Positions 5,485 through 14,318 of a stretch of 22,219 bases of DNA are shown one piece after another. The DNA is from Promethearchaeota archaeon (GTDB lineage Archaea; Asgardarchaeota; Lokiarchaeia; Sigyniarchaeales; SOKP01). The translations under genes were made by a program, and so were the position numbers. The stretch covers positions 1 through 22,219 of the forward strand of contig JAFGGO010000155.1 of assembly GCA_016930515.1 (NCBI GenBank), in the 5' to 3' direction. Every line of letters begins with the position of its first letter. The first letter of the stretch is position 1. The notes below the pieces were generated by a model. The model was not told the DNA's origin and searched no databases. It was given only the letters and a program-made list of their open reading frames with translations.

Positions 5485-6312
5485 TTATTGAAGCGCATCT
5501 TTAATTCCTGATACGAAAGAAACCATATCTTGTTCCATTTTCTCAAAATCGTGCAAATTTCTTTCGACAATGTTGACTATGGCGGAGCCTATTATGACCC
5601 CATTGGCTCCTGCTTGAGTAATTTCAATGACATGATCTGGTTTGGATATTCCAAAACCAACCAAGATCGGAATCACATTATTTGTAAGCTTGCTGATTCT
5701 GTGCATTGTATCTATCGTGATTTGGGATGTTGAAGTTCTTGCTCCCGTGACGCCCATAACAGAAATTAAATAGATGAAACCACGCGCAACTTTGAGAATT
5801 TTTTGAAGTCTTTCTTCCGTAGTCGATGGTGCAATGAGAAATATCAAGCATAGATCGTGCTTTTCGCAGGCTTTTAGTGTTGGACCTGCTTCTTCAATAG
5901 GTAAATCTCCTATCACGATTCCATCAACGCCACTTTCTTTCAATTTTTTAATTGTCTTATCTAACGATTCTTCAATCGTGTCTTCTCCTTGAATAATTAT
6001 GTTGTAATAAGTGAGTACGACTATCGGTTTTTCGGTCTTTTCTCTTATTTTTTTTATAGCATTGAGAGCAACCGCGGTGTTAATTCCCGTCTTAAATGCT
6101 CTTGTATTTGCAGCTTGGATCGTTGGTCCGTCAGCAATGGGATCGGAAAAAGGTATCCCAATCTCTAAAATATCAGCATATGGTTCAATCGCCAAGCATA
6201 ATTTTTTAAATTGCTCAATATTCGGATCTCCTGCAACTAAAAATGGCATGAATTTTTTTGCCTTAGTTCTATTGCTTGTTTCAAATAGCTGTATTATTCT
6301 ATTATATTTCAT
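5485..6312 (-). CDS. trpA: Tryptophan synthase alpha chain
   Basis: LEIGIPFSDPIADGPTIQ (catalytic Glu and Asp), GVTG, VGFGIS, IIGSAIV. Confidence 0.97.
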   Translation of the reverse strand: MKYNRIIQLFETSNRTKAKKFMPFLVAGDPNIEQFKKLCLAIEPYADILEIGIPFSDPIADGPTIQAANTRAFKTGINTAVALNAIKKIREKTEKPIVVLTYYNIIIQGEDTIEESLDKTIKKLKESGVDGIVIGDLPIEEAGPTLKACEKHDLCLIFLIAPSTTEERLQKILKVARGFIYLISVMGVTGARTSTSQITIDTMHRISKLTNNVIPILVGFGISKPDHVIEITQAGANGVIIGSAIVNIVERNLHDFEKMEQDMVSFVSGIKDALQ

Positions 6313-6356: not shown

Positions 6357-6806
6357 TTATTTCAAACCCATTAATTGGATGAACTCCTCAAGATCGATCA
6401 ATTTATCACCATTAAGATCCACATCTTTTACCATTTCTTCAAGTTGATCGTCTGCAAGGTCCTCTCCAACCTCTATCATTATCTTCTTCAATTCCTCAAC
6501 TGAAATTAATCCACTATCATCATTATCGCATATTTTAAATGCTTCTCTTATTTTTAATTCTCTTGCTCTAGAAAGGACCAGCTTTTTATAAAGCTTGATA
6601 AATTCGTGAAAAGTAATAGTTCCATCTGAATTTACATCTATTTCCATCAATTTTCTAAGCTTTTCATCGTTTGGAAGATTTTCGTTAAGTTCGGCGAAGA
6701 CCTTTCCTACTTCCTTAAAAGATATCGATCCACTTCCGTCCTCATCGCAAAAAGCAAATAATTCTCTTATTCTAAGCAACTCCTCATCTTCAAGTTCATC
6801 ATACAT
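6357..6806 (-). CDS. Calmodulin-like protein with four EF-hands
   Basis: Loops DEDGSGSISFKE, DVNSDGTITFHE, DNDDSGLISVEE and DLNGDKLIDLEE starting at D21, D57, D94 and D130; 149 aa. Confidence 0.93.
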   Translation of the reverse strand: MYDELEDEELLRIRELFAFCDEDGSGSISFKEVGKVFAELNENLPNDEKLRKLMEIDVNSDGTITFHEFIKLYKKLVLSRARELKIREAFKICDNDDSGLISVEELKKIMIEVGEDLADDQLEEMVKDVDLNGDKLIDLEEFIQLMGLK

Positions 6807-6826: not shown

Positions 6827-8053
6827 TTAATCTTGAATTTCATATTTTTCAGGATCTATCTTAAATTGAATATGCTCTTTCACGATAGAAAGATCTTTTC
6901 CACCATTCCCACTAAGATTTACAACCACGATATCGTCTTTTTGAAATTCTTTTTTGATTTTTTCTAGATACGCTAATGCGTGAGAACTTTCTAAGGCGGG
7001 AATAATTCCTTCATAAAGCGATAAATTCTTAAATGCCTGTAGAGTTTCTTTATCCGTAGCTTCAGCAACTCTCAACCGATGAAGTTCTTTTAAATAACAA
7101 TGCTCGGGTCCAACACCAGGATAATCAAGACCTGCGCTTATTGAGTGTGTCTCTGTTATGTTCCCATATCCGTCCTGCAATAAGTATTGCATTGCTCCGT
7201 GGAGGACTCCCTTGCGCCCTAAGCCCAAGGCAATGGAATGTTTATTAGTATCTTTACCTTCTCCTGCAGCTTCAACACCGATTAAATTCACGCTATCGTC
7301 ATTTACAAAGTCGTAAAAGGCCCCTATAGCGTTACTTCCTCCTCCTATGCAAGCTATGATGGCATCAGGAAGCTTTCCTTCATATCGCAAAATTTGATCT
7401 TTTATTTCTTTTCCGATTACTCTTTGGAATTCCCGAACAATGAGTGGATATGGATGTGGTCCTACTACCGAGCCCATTAAATAATGTGTATCTTCTAAAT
7501 GGGAAATCCAATAGCGCAATCCCTCATTAACAGCATCCTTTAGCGTTTTTGAACCCGATTTAACTGGTATAACTTCAGCACCCAATAACTGCATCCGAAA
7601 GACATTGTACGCCTGCCTTTTAATATCGATTTCGCCCATAAAGACCTTGGTTTCCATGCCAAAATATGCTCCAGCAATTGCGGTCGCAAAACCATGTTGA
7701 CCAGCACCTGTTTCGGCCACTAGCTTGGTTTTTCCCATCTTTTTTGCGAGAAGCGCTTGACCCATGACATTATTGATTTTATGTGCGCCACCGTGGTTTA
7801 AATCTTCCCGTTTTAAATATACCTTGCATCCGATAAATTCACCATATCTTTTAGCGCGATAGAGTGGTGTGGGGCGTCCACTGTATTCCGAAAGAATTTG
7901 CGAAAATTCTTTTATGAAATTCTCGTCTTTTAAATATCTGAAATATCCCTCTTTGAGCTCGTTTAACGCCGGCATGAGAATTTCTGGAGCGAACATTCCT
8001 CCAAATTCCCCAAACTTTCCCAACTCGTCGGGATGCTTGCCAATATAATCCAT
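6827..8053 (-). CDS. trpB: Tryptophan synthase beta chain (TrpB1 type)
   Basis: [15 protein letters not shown] (PLP Lys), [42 protein letters not shown]. Confidence 0.97.
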
Positions 8054-8060
8054 ATTCTAA

Positions 8061-8714
8061 TTATTCACTTCTATTTTTAATTTTATTAATAACGTTTAAA
8101 AAAGCTTTAATTTTTGTAATGCTTTTAACACCTTTTTCAGATTCTAATGAACTGCTTGCGTCAACACCAAAAGGATTTAAAGAATTAGCCAAAGATTCTA
8201 CATTAAATTCGTTTATACCTCCAGCAAGTATTATTTTAGCCCCAGGCGATCGTTTTAACGCCTCCCTCACGAGATCTAAATCCATAAAACACCCTTCTCC
8301 TTCACTATTATCGAGTAAAAACGAAAATACCTGATCACTATATGAATTAATTACATCAATAATGTAGTTCTTATTGAGTTGATTTATTTTTAAAGCTAGA
8401 ATTATTTTTTTTCTTTTGTAGAGCGATAAAGATTTCAAGTCGTTCAGATCAAAATCAGGGTGCACTTGATATAATGATGCTGGAATATTATTCATAGTTG
8501 CATCAATTTCTTCCACGCTTGAAGGTTTAAATACTATAACGGTGATTAATTTATTCTCTATTTTCTGAAGTAACTTTTTAATTTCGTCTTTTTTTAGATT
8601 TCTTGGAGATGTTGGCACATTATAGACGAAACCCACAGCGTTTGCTCCATTTTGGGCGCATAAATCCACATGTTCAAATTCTTTCAAGCCACATATTTTT
8701 ACATATTCAATCAA
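8061..8714 (-). CDS. trpF: Phosphoribosylanthranilate isomerase
   Basis: VKICG, SPR, LLD, ILAGG, GVDASS.LE..KGVK; TTG start 2 nt after trpC stop. Confidence 0.92.
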   Translation of the reverse strand: MIEYVKICGLKEFEHVDLCAQNGANAVGFVYNVPTSPRNLKKDEIKKLLQKIENKLITVIVFKPSSVEEIDATMNNIPASLYQVHPDFDLNDLKSLSLYKRKKIILALKINQLNKNYIIDVINSYSDQVFSFLLDNSEGEGCFMDLDLVREALKRSPGAKIILAGGINEFNVESLANSLNPFGVDASSSLESEKGVKSITKIKAFLNVINKIKNRSE

Positions 8715-8716
8715 TC

Positions 8717-9511
8717 TTATCCCCTTAATTCCAATATCTTTTGCTTAATATTCTTGGATTGCATGATTGAAGCGCCTATCAAGAAAGCATTGGCACCGCT
8801 TGGTTTCAAGGTTTCAATATCCTGTCGGGAATTTATTCCACTCTCGCTAACTATAACAACATTGTTTCCGCAGAGTTTTCTAATTTTCGGGATTAATTGC
8901 TTTGAAGAGTTTAGATCTATTTCAAGAGTTTTAAGATTTCGATTATTAACTCCGATCAGACTAGGAAAAATTCCAGATTCTATTAATTGTTCGATGTCTT
9001 TCAATTCGCTTTCTTCGTGAATTTCTATAAGTGGTTCCATTCCCTCCTTTAAGATTAACTCGCATATTTCTATTAAATTGCATATAGAATTGATCACAAG
9101 CACATTTGAAGCGCCAAGACGGGAAGCGATTAAAATTTGTATTGGATCCACGACAAAGTCTTTCATTAGACAAGGAAGATGCGTGCTTGATAAAGCACTC
9201 TTAAGATTTCCGTATGAGCCGTAAAAATAATATGGTTCCGTAAGCACGCTTAGTCCGACCGCACCCGCCTCTTCCATTTCTATTGCCACGGATTTGACAT
9301 CGATATTTGATCGTATATTACCTAAAGTTGGAGATGCTGGTTTTATTTCTGAAATTATCGATATCGAATTGTTATTTTTGATCGATTCGCTCAAGCTTCT
9401 TCGTAAAATACTCCTGGGTAAAGTGTCCATAGAATTATAATATTCCCAATCCTCCTTAATAAATGCTTTCCTGCGATTTACGATTTCAGCGATTTTATTC
9501 GATATTGTCAT
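8717..9511 (-). CDS. trpC: Indole-3-glycerol phosphate synthase
   Basis: ISEIKPASPT, LSVLTE, LMKDF, IGVNNRNL, VSESGI, FLIG. Confidence 0.96.
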   Translation of the reverse strand: MTISNKIAEIVNRRKAFIKEDWEYYNSMDTLPRSILRRSLSESIKNNNSISIISEIKPASPTLGNIRSNIDVKSVAIEMEEAGAVGLSVLTEPYYFYGSYGNLKSALSSTHLPCLMKDFVVDPIQILIASRLGASNVLVINSICNLIEICELILKEGMEPLIEIHEESELKDIEQLIESGIFPSLIGVNNRNLKTLEIDLNSSKQLIPKIRKLCGNNVVIVSESGINSRQDIETLKPSGANAFLIGASIMQSKNIKQKILELRG

Positions 9512-9532: not shown

Positions 9533-10588
9533 TTACAATAAATTATTTAATTTTTCTTTTTCTCCACCAGATATTTCAACCAAGTGCTTCAATTTTTCCA
9601 TTGCATTTCCCGATTCTATCGAATTTCTTGCGATAGATACCGCATCTGAAAAGTCAGAAGCTTTATTTGCACTTTTTAAAGCTAGTGCCGCGTTCATTAA
9701 CACCGTATCGTACTTAGCATCTCTTACCCGATTATGTAGTATTTTTATCGCAATCTTTAGATTTTCTTCCATTGTACCAGATAACAATTCCTTCGCAGAA
9801 TATTGCGGTAGGTTGAATTCTTGGCTTGTTATAGCATATGATTCAATTTTACCATCCGTTATTTCCGTTACATAATTAATTCCTACTGGAGCTATCTCGT
9901 CTATACCCAGCGAATTATATACTGTAAACGCGTGTTTCGTACCTAACCCGTTTAGTACATTCGCCATAAGAGGGGCCAATTCTTTTTGAAACACCCCAAG
10001 AATATGATATTTAGCGCTAGCAGGATTTGTTAAAGGCCCTAATATGTTAAACACCGTTCGAATTTTTAACGCTCTCCTCGTGGGCATCGCGTGTTTCATG
10101 GCAGGGTGGAATAGGGGTGCAAACATGAATCCTATTCCCACTTTTTCTATGCATTCTCTAACGCCTTCGGGAGGCAAGTTTATTTTAACACCCAATCCCT
10201 CTAATATATCTGCACTTCCACATTTGCTTGTTACAGCACGATTGCCATGCTTTGCTACTGGAACACCTGCTCCAGCTACAACTAATGCGGATATTGTACT
10301 TATATTGAAGGTTTTTATTTTATCGCCACCTGTACCGCAAGTATCCAATAATTCACCTTCAACAGCAGGATTGATCTTGCTTGAAAATTCTCGCATGATT
10401 CGAGCAAATCCCGTAATTTCTTCAGACGATTCTCCCTTCATGCTTAAACCAGTTAAAAACGCCCCAAGCTGAGATTCTTGAACCTTGCCCGTCATTATGT
10501 CCCTCATAACATTTTCTGCTTCATATATTGACAAATTTTCTTTGCATGTTATTTTCCTTAAAGCGTTTACTATCGTTTCTTCTTCCAT
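9533..10588 (-). CDS. trpD: Anthranilate phosphoribosyltransferase
   Basis: DTCGTGGD, FNIST, VAKHGNR, GSADILE, RTVFNILGPLTNPA; AAGGA SD at 10599-10603. Confidence 0.97.
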   Translation of the reverse strand: MEEETIVNALRKITCKENLSIYEAENVMRDIMTGKVQESQLGAFLTGLSMKGESSEEITGFARIMREFSSKINPAVEGELLDTCGTGGDKIKTFNISTISALVVAGAGVPVAKHGNRAVTSKCGSADILEGLGVKINLPPEGVRECIEKVGIGFMFAPLFHPAMKHAMPTRRALKIRTVFNILGPLTNPASAKYHILGVFQKELAPLMANVLNGLGTKHAFTVYNSLGIDEIAPVGINYVTEITDGKIESYAITSQEFNLPQYSAKELLSGTMEENLKIAIKILHNRVRDAKYDTVLMNAALALKSANKASDFSDAVSIARNSIESGNAMEKLKHLVEISGGEKEKLNNLL

Positions 10589-10693
10589 ATTAACCGATTC
10601 CTTTTATATTTACTCGTGATTCGTTATAATATTGGATGTCAATAATTAAAACGCACTTTTAGAAGTAAAAGCTGTTAAATCGTAAGAATTAAT

Positions 10694-10746
10694 AAATAGC
10701 GTGAAAAATAGCTTATTCCATTGAAATAGCGTTACTGCCAACGCCA
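10694..10746 (-). promoter_or_regulatory. Putative trp attenuator region (overlapping hairpins plus U-rich tracts)
   Basis: Hairpin UGGCGUUG-GCAG-UAACGCUA (10746-10727) overlaps hairpin GCUAUUUC-AAU-GGAAUAAGC (10730-10711), which is followed by UAUUUUUC; three GCUAUUU repeats. Confidence 0.5.
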
Positions 10747-10788
10747 AGGCCACTGCCAACCGAAGTGATTTGCGAACGAGATTGTCAT
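10732..10788 (-). CDS. trpL: Putative trp operon leader peptide MTISFANHFGWQWPWRWQ (18 aa, 4 Trp)
   Basis: ATG at 10788, TAA at 10734-10732, four in-frame TGG codons; AAGGA 8 nt upstream; ends 143 nt before trpD on the same strand. Confidence 0.85.
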   Translation of the reverse strand: MTISFANHFGWQWPWRWQ

Positions 10789-10831
10789 GAATCTTATCCT
10801 TAGTGTGGTTGTTTTTTATAATAATAAATTA

Positions 10832-10850
10832 CATATAAACCATTTGAATT
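10832..10850 (-). promoter_or_regulatory. Putative archaeal TATA box (TTTATATG) and BRE region for the trp leader/operon
   Basis: TTTATATG at 10839-10832 would put the TSS near 10810, just upstream of the leader SD; AT-rich context weakens specificity. Confidence 0.5.
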
Positions 10851-12011: not shown

Positions 12012-12731
12012 TTAATTCGGCCTAAAACTTTTACCTAACAAGTATGTTCCTATTACGAGTATGAATCGAGGAATAAAGACAAAGGCGTGAATAAAATGAC
12101 CTGGAACAACTGTATCCGCTAAAACAACACATCCAAAAATTGGGATTGCAATAATTAGAAAATTAGTTCTTTCCTTTAATTTTCCCGTAGAAAGCTTCCT
12201 AAACTTATGCCACCCCAATGCACAAATTATAGTTGAGATCATCGTTTGTAGCCATATAAATACGAAAAAGAACGACATTGGATTAACCCAATCGTCGTAT
12301 ACTTCGTTAATAGAATCAAGTCTGGAAATATGGATTGCATATGGGAATTCTATAAAAAAAGTGATATAATATATCACAGATATGATTATTGCAACGATTA
12401 ATATATGCTTTTTATTCATTGGGCTTCCTACTAGATCCCAAGAGGAACTCGTAATTGCAAAGGATCCAATAGGAAGAGTACAATAGGAAAAAAAAAAGAA
12501 TACAGATCTTATCCAAGGAGCATTTTGTCCAAGAAACAAAACCGATAAAAAAGAAATGCTAATTCCTGACCAACCTAAAGCCATAGATAAATAGATCATC
12601 ATTCCGTTAATATATATGGAATTTTTATGATTCCTATATCGAAAAATATCTCGAATAAAAAAAATCCAAGCTATTACAACGATTACAAATGCGCTAAGTC
12701 CATTGACCCATGATAGATACACATTTGTCAT
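12012..12731 (-). CDS. Seven-TM membrane protein (paralog 1)
   Basis: Seven hydrophobic segments; shares NG.SA, RD..RYR, APWI, VYDDWVN and RT motifs with the neighbour. Confidence 0.85.
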   Translation of the reverse strand: MTNVYLSWVNGLSAFVIVVIAWIFFIRDIFRYRNHKNSIYINGMMIYLSMALGWSGISISFLSVLFLGQNAPWIRSVFFFFSYCTLPIGSFAITSSSWDLVGSPMNKKHILIVAIIISVIYYITFFIEFPYAIHISRLDSINEVYDDWVNPMSFFFVFIWLQTMISTIICALGWHKFRKLSTGKLKERTNFLIIAIPIFGCVVLADTVVPGHFIHAFVFIPRFILVIGTYLLGKSFRPN

Positions 12732-12874: not shown

Positions 12875-13597
12875 TTAGTGTTCAGCAGTAGGTTTATATC
12901 CCTGGCTTAACAAAATAAGCCCGAGAACCTCTATAAATCTCGTAAGGAATAAAGACGAAAAGATTAAGTAATCTGGGACTGTTGCATCAGTCGTAAATCC
13001 AATTCCAATTAAAAACGATGATATTAATATGAGTTTGGTTCGCTTTTTTATTGTTCCTGAAGATCTTTTTATCATGTGATAAATACCCATTATGGCGCTA
13101 AATCCCGGTACAGTCATTAAAACGAGTGAAACTATATAAAATAAGGACCTTATATTAACCCAATCATCATAGACCGAGTAAGGTAATTCAAGTGAGTTAT
13201 GACGGATAGCGTCTGAATATGTGGAAAATAACACGATATAATAGATAATGGAAAGGATTGCAGAAATTAACATTATTATTTTCATTTTTTCAGGTTTTCC
13301 GTCCCACGCACCTTTATTAATTACAAAAGCCACAAAAGGAAGTCCAGAAAAGGAAAAATAACCTGCCACACCCACTATCCAGGGCGCAGTATATCCAAGT
13401 GCAATGACTGAAATGAAAGAGAGAACCACACCTATGAAACTAAATGCGGTCACGATATATATGACCATACCATAAATATATAAAGTGATGTTATAAAACC
13501 TATACCTGTATAAATCCCTTAAGAATAAGAACAAGGCGGTTATAAAGAGTACTAAAGCACTAAAACCATTGATAATGTTAATTAAAATATTCGTCAT
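12875..13597 (-). CDS. Seven-TM membrane protein (paralog 2)
   Basis: Colinear with the 12012-12731 product, 240 vs 239 aa. Confidence 0.85.
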   Translation of the reverse strand: MTNILINIINGFSALVLFITALFLFLRDLYRYRFYNITLYIYGMVIYIVTAFSFIGVVLSFISVIALGYTAPWIVGVAGYFSFSGLPFVAFVINKGAWDGKPEKMKIIMLISAILSIIYYIVLFSTYSDAIRHNSLELPYSVYDDWVNIRSLFYIVSLVLMTVPGFSAIMGIYHMIKRSSGTIKKRTKLILISSFLIGIGFTTDATVPDYLIFSSLFLTRFIEVLGLILLSQGYKPTAEH

Positions 13598-13709: not shown

Positions 13710-14318
13710 TTATTTAGTAACTGTTCCTTTCACGAGGAAATTAACCAAATCATTAATATACTCATCATCTGAAAGTTCAAAACCTGTCCTTGTCCAATAG
13801 CTAAATGTTTGGAACAATAAATCGACCCATATCATTGCGGTTAATTTTGGGTTTTGGGGACGAATATAACCGACATCCAACAACTTATTGATTATTTTTT
13901 CGACTGTTTTATACCCTTGTTGAAGATAATCTTCCTTCATTTTTGCGTATTTTTGATTTATTCCGCTCATTTGATCGACAAATATTAAGGCAGCGTTGCC
14001 ATGTTGCTTGAAAACTGTCACATATTCCCTGTAAAGAGCCTTTATTAGTTTCACGGGAGGTATATTGTAATTTAGAAGTTTTTCTAATTTATCCATAATG
14101 TCAATATAAAATTCTTCAATTAGAATCTCGAATATCTCTTCCTTACTATTGAAATACCTGTAAAAATTTCCAACGGAAGTGCCAGCTAATTCAGTGATAT
14201 CTTTCACTCGAGTGTCGTTGAAACCTTTTTTTTGAAATGTTTCGACAGCTGCGATGAGGTATAAGTTTCTTTTTTGTTCCTTGGTTTTTTCGGTTCGTTC
14301 CTTTCGAGTAGTCATCAC
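13710..14318 (-). CDS. TetR/AcrR family transcriptional regulator
   Basis: N-terminal HTH AAVETFQKKGFNDTRVKDITELAGTSVGNFYRYFNSKEEIF. Confidence 0.95.
   Translation of the reverse strand: MMTTRKERTEKTKEQKRNLYLIAAVETFQKKGFNDTRVKDITELAGTSVGNFYRYFNSKEEIFEILIEEFYIDIMDKLEKLLNYNIPPVKLIKALYREYVTVFKQHGNAALIFVDQMSGINQKYAKMKEDYLQQGYKTVEKIINKLLDVGYIRPQNPKLTAMIWVDLLFQTFSYWTRTGFELSDDEYINDLVNFLVKGTVTK

Follow-up and report, generated by a model that had tools for sequence, protein, structure and literature searches.

A Trp-codon leader ORF heading the trp operon of a Lokiarchaeia archaeon as a probable ribosome-read tryptophan sensor

The window analysed here (22,219 nt; contig JAFGGO010000155.1 of the Promethearchaeota archaeon assembly GCA_016930515.1) carries on its minus strand a trp operon headed by an 18-codon leader ORF with Trp at codons 11, 13, 15 and 17, which is very likely to be a ribosome-based sensor of Trp. 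This reading, already put forward in an initial annotation and borne out by the comparison of sequences, is based on conservation of the leader, its reading frame, its tracking of operon heads, the presence of other cognate leaders and covariation in the leader RNA. Trp-codon sensing combined with premature termination at U-tracts by aCPSF1/FttA as the output is given a slightly better than even chance, while premature termination is moderately probable once Trp sensing is granted. We infer that the leader is translated, that ribosomes stall on it and that the output step proceeds via transcription-translation coupling. The features of the locus are as follows.

10832-10839, minus strand: TATA-like box TTTATATG of the leader/operon promoter, with similar boxes in 27 of 48 leaders
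10789-10808, minus strand: 5' segment with the AAGGA Shine-Dalgarno (SD) sequence (10801-10797), pairing long-range (helix P0) in relatives
10732-10788, minus strand: leader ORF, identified by translation, conservation and an ORF-blind frame test
10728-10745, minus strand: hairpin H1, with the codons of Trp15, Arg16 and Trp17 as its 5' arm and a 3' arm beginning in the stop codon
10665-10727, minus strand: U-rich linker, with two runs of at least four U within 10703-10710 and 10665-10671
10616-10656, minus strand: distal hairpin H3 with a 3-nt bulge, identified by covariation and RNAalifold
9533-10588, minus strand: trpD, first gene of the operon (TIGR01245)
8717-9511, minus strand: trpC
8061-8714, minus strand: trpF
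6827-8053, minus strand: trpB of the TrpB1 type (TIGR00263)
6357-6806, minus strand: calmodulin-like EF-hand gene between trpB and trpA (locus comparison)
5485-6312, minus strand: trpA (TIGR00262)

The gene order is trpD-trpC-trpF-trpB-(EF-hand gene)-trpA, and all six operon proteins together contain only two Trp residues. The nearest relatives of its trpB are 78-90% identical and bear the labels Promethearchaeota, Promethearchaeia or uncultured archaeon, which identifies the host as an Asgard archaeon of the Loki type. Translation reproduces the alternating W-x-W-x-W-x-W run described earlier for the 18-aa peptide, and the same agreement was obtained for the 143 nt separating the leader stop from the trpD ATG and for the Trp count of the operon. 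The earlier judgement that four TGG in 18 codons are unlikely to arise by chance also holds, as only 3 of the 7,247 intergenic ATG ORFs of 8-40 aa in the 4.0-Mb genome contain four Trp, two of which head trp units. Intergenic sites of the form TGG-N3-TGG-N3-TGG occur only twice in the whole genome, heading the trpD operon and the trpEG unit, respectively. The latter is preceded by a second Trp leader of 23 codons with four Trp, situated 143 nt upstream of the separate trpE-trpG unit (contig C34), while no Trp leader was found upstream of trpB2 on contig C100.

L046:1286-1357 (G000 C34:18063-18134), plus strand: second Trp leader, of an RNA subtype different from that of the window leader

The TATA-like box reported earlier is present at 10839-10832, and comparable boxes lie 51-60 nt upstream of the AUG in 27 of the 48 leaders; transcription is predicted from this box to start about 25 nt upstream of the leader AUG. 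The AAGGA that had been assigned as the leader's own SD is likewise present, but it is a weak SD, because AAGGA is only about 3-fold enriched upstream of genes in this genome (105 versus 32; about 10-fold for GGAGG/GAGGT) and is not conserved among the leaders of relatives. A 16S rRNA gene was sought in the assembly and not found. An internal promoter may exist upstream of trpD, although the conserved block in that region shows the covariation of a hairpin.

A Trp leader is found in all 23 family relatives with sufficient upstream DNA (24 relatives with trpD were collected), so that conservation of the Trp codons, on which the initial annotation had staked its reading, is established within the family. 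Nearly all of these leaders comprise 16-26 codons with two to five Trp codons just upstream of the stop, the last Trp lying one to three codons from it. Metagenome contigs yielded further Trp leaders, the other families of the class contain leaders with two to four Trp, one lacking a standard start codon, and two or more of the more distant Asgard families have Trp-rich ORFs ahead of trpD. The single-contig 6-Mb genome G055 of a Loki archaeon possesses both a leader with two Trp and a Leu leader. In the leaders of one genus (L004, L031 and L041), some Trp codons are replaced by Cys (TGG to TGT), with two or three Trp left and H1 kept. Families with the order trpE-G-D possess TRP-box-like pairs or single-Trp ORFs in place of leaders: paired TGTACA-like boxes, the consensus of the TrpY operator, were identified upstream of trpE in such operons of other Asgard families (L169, L171-L174, L177, L179 and L184), several of them with a single-Trp short ORF next. 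In one distant Asgard family (L176-L178), operons of the order trpE-G-aro-aro-trpD are preceded by a short ORF whose R-R-D-C-x-W end is conserved.

The reading frame was assessed by locating the TGG repeat blind to ORFs and asking whether a start codon lay 8-45 codons upstream of it and a stop codon no more than four codons away. Both were present in the TGG frame at 35 of 37 distinct loci and in each other frame at none of the 37, these loci being kin and not independent, so that the counts do not amount to a p-value; among background intergenic TGG, 3% have such a start and stop. From the aligned AUG to the Trp run, lengths differ between leaders by whole codons, whereas distances upstream of the AUG differ by single bases.

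The leader also follows the head of the operon rather than a given gene. In the six genomes in which trpE heads its own unit, a Trp leader lies upstream of it in each, but none is found where trpE stands behind trpA or another gene. Where an ORF of 80-99 aa precedes trpD in some relatives, the leader is kept and lies upstream of that ORF. The encoded 80-99-aa protein, with a conserved GPEKS-like motif, is the product of the first trp operon gene in several relatives and may be a regulator or accessory protein; it has no Pfam match and was not found in this genome. Its loci are given below.

L002:1200-1499: 80-99-aa ORF
L003:1228-1500: 80-99-aa ORF
L009:1251-1493: 80-99-aa ORF
L040:2547-2828: 80-99-aa ORF

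The initial annotation had proposed that other amino-acid operons be scanned for cognate leaders, and such leaders exist. An unbiased scan across 2,946 upstream short ORFs of this genome placed both Trp leaders in the top five, and a leader with a Leu run before leuA and one with an Ile run before cimA in the top nine.

L078 (contig C134, before 20521), minus strand: Leu-run leader before leuA, kept in most family relatives
L077 (contig C47, before 28299), plus strand: Ile-run leader before cimA, kept in most family relatives

Among relatives, Trp makes up 30% of the final 12 codons in the trp leaders, Leu 62% in those of leuA and Ile 50% in those of cimA, and this agreement of amino acid and pathway in three operons gives the strongest indication that the codons are read. 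The leuA leader is followed after its stop by two overlapping hairpins. The Phe and His codons of the Trp leader, to which cross-pathway sensing had been ascribed, give no such match: His occurs in 6 of the 20 leaders of the subtype at varying places, and Phe accounts for 6.8% of the residues in leaders but 9.2% in background short ORFs, so this suggestion was dropped.

The same scan ranked sixth a Gly-enriched ORF of 28 codons (L082; contig C54, before 2919, minus strand), 176 nt upstream of a gene for a 215-aa protein without NCBIfam match at E 1e-15. Four further leaders (L076 on C122, L080 on C61, L081 on C126 and L079 on C175) comprise Val/Leu/Ile-rich ones, which precede genes for an acyl-CoA dehydrogenase, a methylmalonyl/isobutyryl-CoA mutase-type enzyme and a 2-oxoacid:ferredoxin oxidoreductase gamma subunit, and an Ala/Val-rich one, which precedes ilvE. 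One might speculate that the Val/Leu-rich leaders follow a reversed logic suited to catabolism, or that these enzymes make branched-chain amino acids via reductive carboxylation.

The leader RNA contains the conserved hairpin H1, the 5' arm of which consists across leaders of a Trp codon and the next codon, while the 3' arm starts from the stop codon or just after it. The core pairs of H1 are complete (4 of 4) in 29 of the 36 leaders; G-C and A-U replace each other between subtypes, as do C-G and U-A, and the leader's own 3' arm folds better than a swapped arm in 27 of the 36 (the 3' arm being placed by best fit). The regulatory Trp codons thereby sit within a hairpin 5' arm, as in trpL hairpin 1:2, and a ribosome on the Trp codons or on the stop would prevent H1 from forming. 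A start-site helix, formed by long-range pairing of the segment that directly precedes the AUG, has z < -2 in 29 of the 48 leaders; the partner of this segment is a block 15-30 nt past the stop in the subtype of the window and, in the trpE subtype, the first Trp codons. In this genome, helix P0 is degenerate (-0.9 kcal/mol, z -0.7), and other folds close the start site.

Downstream of H1, the linker contains 47% U across leaders, compared with 40% downstream of convergent genes and 37% in upstream control DNA, which is a modest enrichment in an AT-rich genome. Its U-tracts lie 10-25 nt after H1, and the linker is a candidate zone for aCPSF1/FttA-dependent or intrinsic termination. The distal hairpin H3, a candidate pause or protective stem, has 97-100% of its cells paired and four pairs changed on both sides, was predicted independently by RNAalifold, and is followed by A-rich sequence and not by a U-run.

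Over the 33 pairs of the named structure, 92% of cells are paired, and 15 cells are changed on both sides as against 4.8 in shuffles, these scores having been computed on the sequences from which the structure was derived. The fold of the whole window leader has no extra stability over shuffled sequences (z -0.08), and RNAalifold with the first short alignments recovered the structure only in part; the structural support therefore comes from comparison among relatives and not from folding energy. A covariance model run on the collected loci matched only the trp leaders of this clade, with no match to bacterial, Leu/Ile or distant Asgard loci, and within the genome it matched only this site. 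A search of the leader against Rfam returned nothing relevant at E up to 1 and no T-box match.

Under the proposed mechanism, the leader peptide would act in cis, sensing charged tRNA-Trp and controlling read-through into the trp operon, with the leader being translated during its own transcription. At low Trp, the ribosome would stall on the UGG codons and remain on the transcript, covering the 5' arm of H1 and, in the trpE subtype, the start-site helix too; both would stay open, and RNA polymerase would proceed into trpD. At ample Trp, the ribosome would reach the stop and depart, H1 and the start-site helix would fold and block reloading, and typically 140-220 nt of U-rich RNA would be left ribosome-free, on which aCPSF1/FttA, or intrinsic release at the U-tracts, would terminate transcription. 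Ribosome occupancy would act as the switch, in place of a terminator/antiterminator pair. The folding models gave no RNA switch that links stalling to the U-tract; by hypothesis, the link would run through occupancy.

As for the factor, aCPSF1/FttA is a homolog of the eukaryotic cleavage factor CPSF73, and its gene is encoded in this genome; together with the modestly U-rich target after the leader stop, its presence is what factor-dependent attenuation calls for. Archaeal termination employs U-tracts and aCPSF1/FttA and needs no hairpin, and the Lokiarchaeota ortholog acts alike, functioning with U-tracts in vivo (PMC8716108). Spt5 bridges RNA polymerase to FttA and, by hypothesis, to the ribosome (PMC13681488). 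A ribosome lingering on the leader could exclude FttA, because Spt5 both recruits FttA and is the proposed ribosome bridge. Counting against the mechanism, there is little direct evidence of coupling in archaea (PMC13681488), this genome has nearly lost the start-site helix of its subtype, and the Val/Leu-rich leaders before usually catabolic enzymes would need the opposite logic. Extended to the genome, the idea that archaea of the Loki type possess a set of leader sensors for Trp, Leu, Ile, Val and probably further amino acids, with occupancy of short ORFs gating aCPSF1/FttA termination, is put forward tentatively, at somewhat below an even chance.

The same Trp-codon sensor might act instead on translation of the first gene or on mRNA processing or stability, with polarity down the operon, for which mycobacterial translational attenuation is a precedent (bioRxiv 10.1101/834739). 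The extended H3 fold of the window indeed pairs the SD region of trpD (unpaired probability 0.30; 0.17 for trpE), and H3 could serve as a protective 5' stem following cleavage of the linker. This output is nonetheless considered unlikely: over 42-43 leaders the start region of the first gene is no more paired than controls (0.51 versus 0.49), the Trp/H1 segment is not complementary to that region (median z 0), the accessibility of the region hardly shifts with ribosome position (0.43-0.50), and spacer length and first-gene identity vary between leaders. Pairing of a leader segment with the first-gene SD, typical of translational attenuators, was not found across the leaders, and single loci, including the window, have a paired start. 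A classical terminator/antiterminator whose helices are too weak or AU-rich for folding programs is very unlikely. The freed 3' arm of H1 in the window forms a competing hairpin when the ribosome is at Trp13/15, and the overlapping hairpins of the leuA leader would fit such hidden attenuation, but relatives do not conserve the competing hairpin, the search for terminator-like sites found none, and the only conserved distal hairpin precedes A-rich sequence. No GC-rich terminator hairpin with a U-run was detected in the leader region, and no conserved antiterminator formed on stalling was found by thermodynamic folding; folding with ribosome footprints left the U-tract unpaired at 0.37 in all four states, without change. 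Pairing of the 3' arm of H1 with H3 as an antiterminator was tried as well and is not conserved.

Two further explanations concern the sensor itself. The nascent peptide, with its conserved W-x-W-R-W-H/Q-A end and a conserved distance of one to three codons from the last Trp to the stop, could arrest the ribosome in response to free Trp and not to tRNA charge, in the manner of TnaC or the fungal arginine attenuator peptide. The conserved tail, however, coincides with the pairing of H1: residues between the Trp codons vary widely, those retained use fixed codons that pair in H1, the N-terminus is unconserved, and at the Leu and Ile operons the leaders simply repeat cognate codons, which speaks for decoding speed; peptide arrest is considered improbable. 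It is very improbable that the TGGC repeat is a binding site of a DNA- or RNA-binding regulator or a plain RNA structure with an incidental ORF. TGG is mostly followed by C, the repeat has a period of 6 nt, and mutation of the regulatory codons had no effect in look-alike leaders of Streptomyces (PMC1262725), a precedent of non-functional codons that also counts against the main reading. An incidental ORF would hardly give the outcome of the ORF-blind frame test (35 of 37 against 0 of 37), the whole-codon length changes restricted to the stretch from AUG to Trp run, or an enriched amino acid that fits the pathway at three different operons. As to known regulators, neither TRAP nor TrpR was found in the 94% complete genome, no TGTACA TRP box was found upstream of either trp unit, and a rough search via ACT domains and an N-terminal Met-Trp gave no TrpY candidate.

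The leader resembles enterobacterial trpL and the actinobacterial trp attenuators: a short ORF lies between the promoter and the first gene, is conserved where it heads the operon and has its Trp codons near its end in a hairpin arm, the operon proteins are almost free of Trp, and there are parallel Leu and Ile leaders. It differs from trpL in its archaeal TATA promoter, its alternating rather than tandem Trp codons and its AU-rich spacer of 140-220 nt with a distal bulged hairpin, and also in that no GC-rich terminator with U-run, antiterminator or Rfam match was found for it (enterobacterial trpL being Rfam RF00513, Trp_leader). The likeness to trpL drawn by the initial annotation therefore stands for the sensor and not for the terminator and antiterminator, and the leader, though it would work like trpL in sensing, is not filed as a classical attenuator because neither of these elements was found. 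Archaea are not known to possess Rho. The leader is more akin to those bacterial leaders that lack an intrinsic terminator (PMC1262725; bioRxiv 10.1101/834739). Escherichia coli tnaC, a Rho-dependent leader, and the cys and leuA leaders of actinobacteria (PMC1262725) share with it cognate codons near the stop, the absence of a classical terminator, and an output thought to hinge on ribosome occupancy and a termination factor, the Asgard candidate being the nuclease aCPSF1/FttA instead of Rho; TnaC, unlike what is proposed for the Asgard leader, responds to free Trp and switches on a catabolic operon. The poly-Cys attenuators of mycobacteria (bioRxiv 10.1101/834739) likewise consist of a short ORF with a codon run as sensor of tRNA charge in several independent leaders, but their codon tract pairs with the downstream SD, a pairing not found in the Asgard leader.

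Xie and Reeve reportedly suggested in 2005 that TrpY senses charged tRNA-Trp through a lone Trp at its residue 2, which is a different device. Trp control of archaeal trp genes is otherwise known from TrpY of Methanothermobacter and the activator Tar of Thermococcus, DNA-binding proteins that act at initiation (PMC6737238), in contrast to the two trp units here, which have no TRP box before them. No report of an amino-acid-sensing leader peptide in archaea was found in the literature searched, archaeal Ribo-seq papers and reviews included, outside which most subscription papers lay. Leader-peptide attenuation is regarded as bacterial. If the occupancy-gated set is real, amino-acid attenuation would here operate without terminator or antiterminator hairpins, and the archaeal lineage nearest to eukaryotes would provide functional evidence that transcription and translation are coupled. 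The leaders also have a bearing on how eukaryotic uORF-based amino-acid control originated. They offer a short, defined cassette for testing coupling and the competition between ribosome and aCPSF1/FttA, for which a Methanococcus strain living on Loki aCPSF1 exists (PMC8716108), and the enriched amino acid labels what the genes behind each leader do.

The window contains two further gene groups of note. The calmodulin-like protein encoded between trpB and trpA (6357-6806) comprises 149 aa with four EF-hands; no second copy of its gene was found in the genome, and among the Asgard trpB loci mapped the insertion occurs only in this genome and its closest relative (L250). Positions 12012-12731 and 12875-13597 (minus strand) encode tandem, similar-looking hydrophobic proteins of 239-240 aa, which are probably multi-pass membrane proteins and whose genes adjoin that of a TetR-family regulator (13710-14318).
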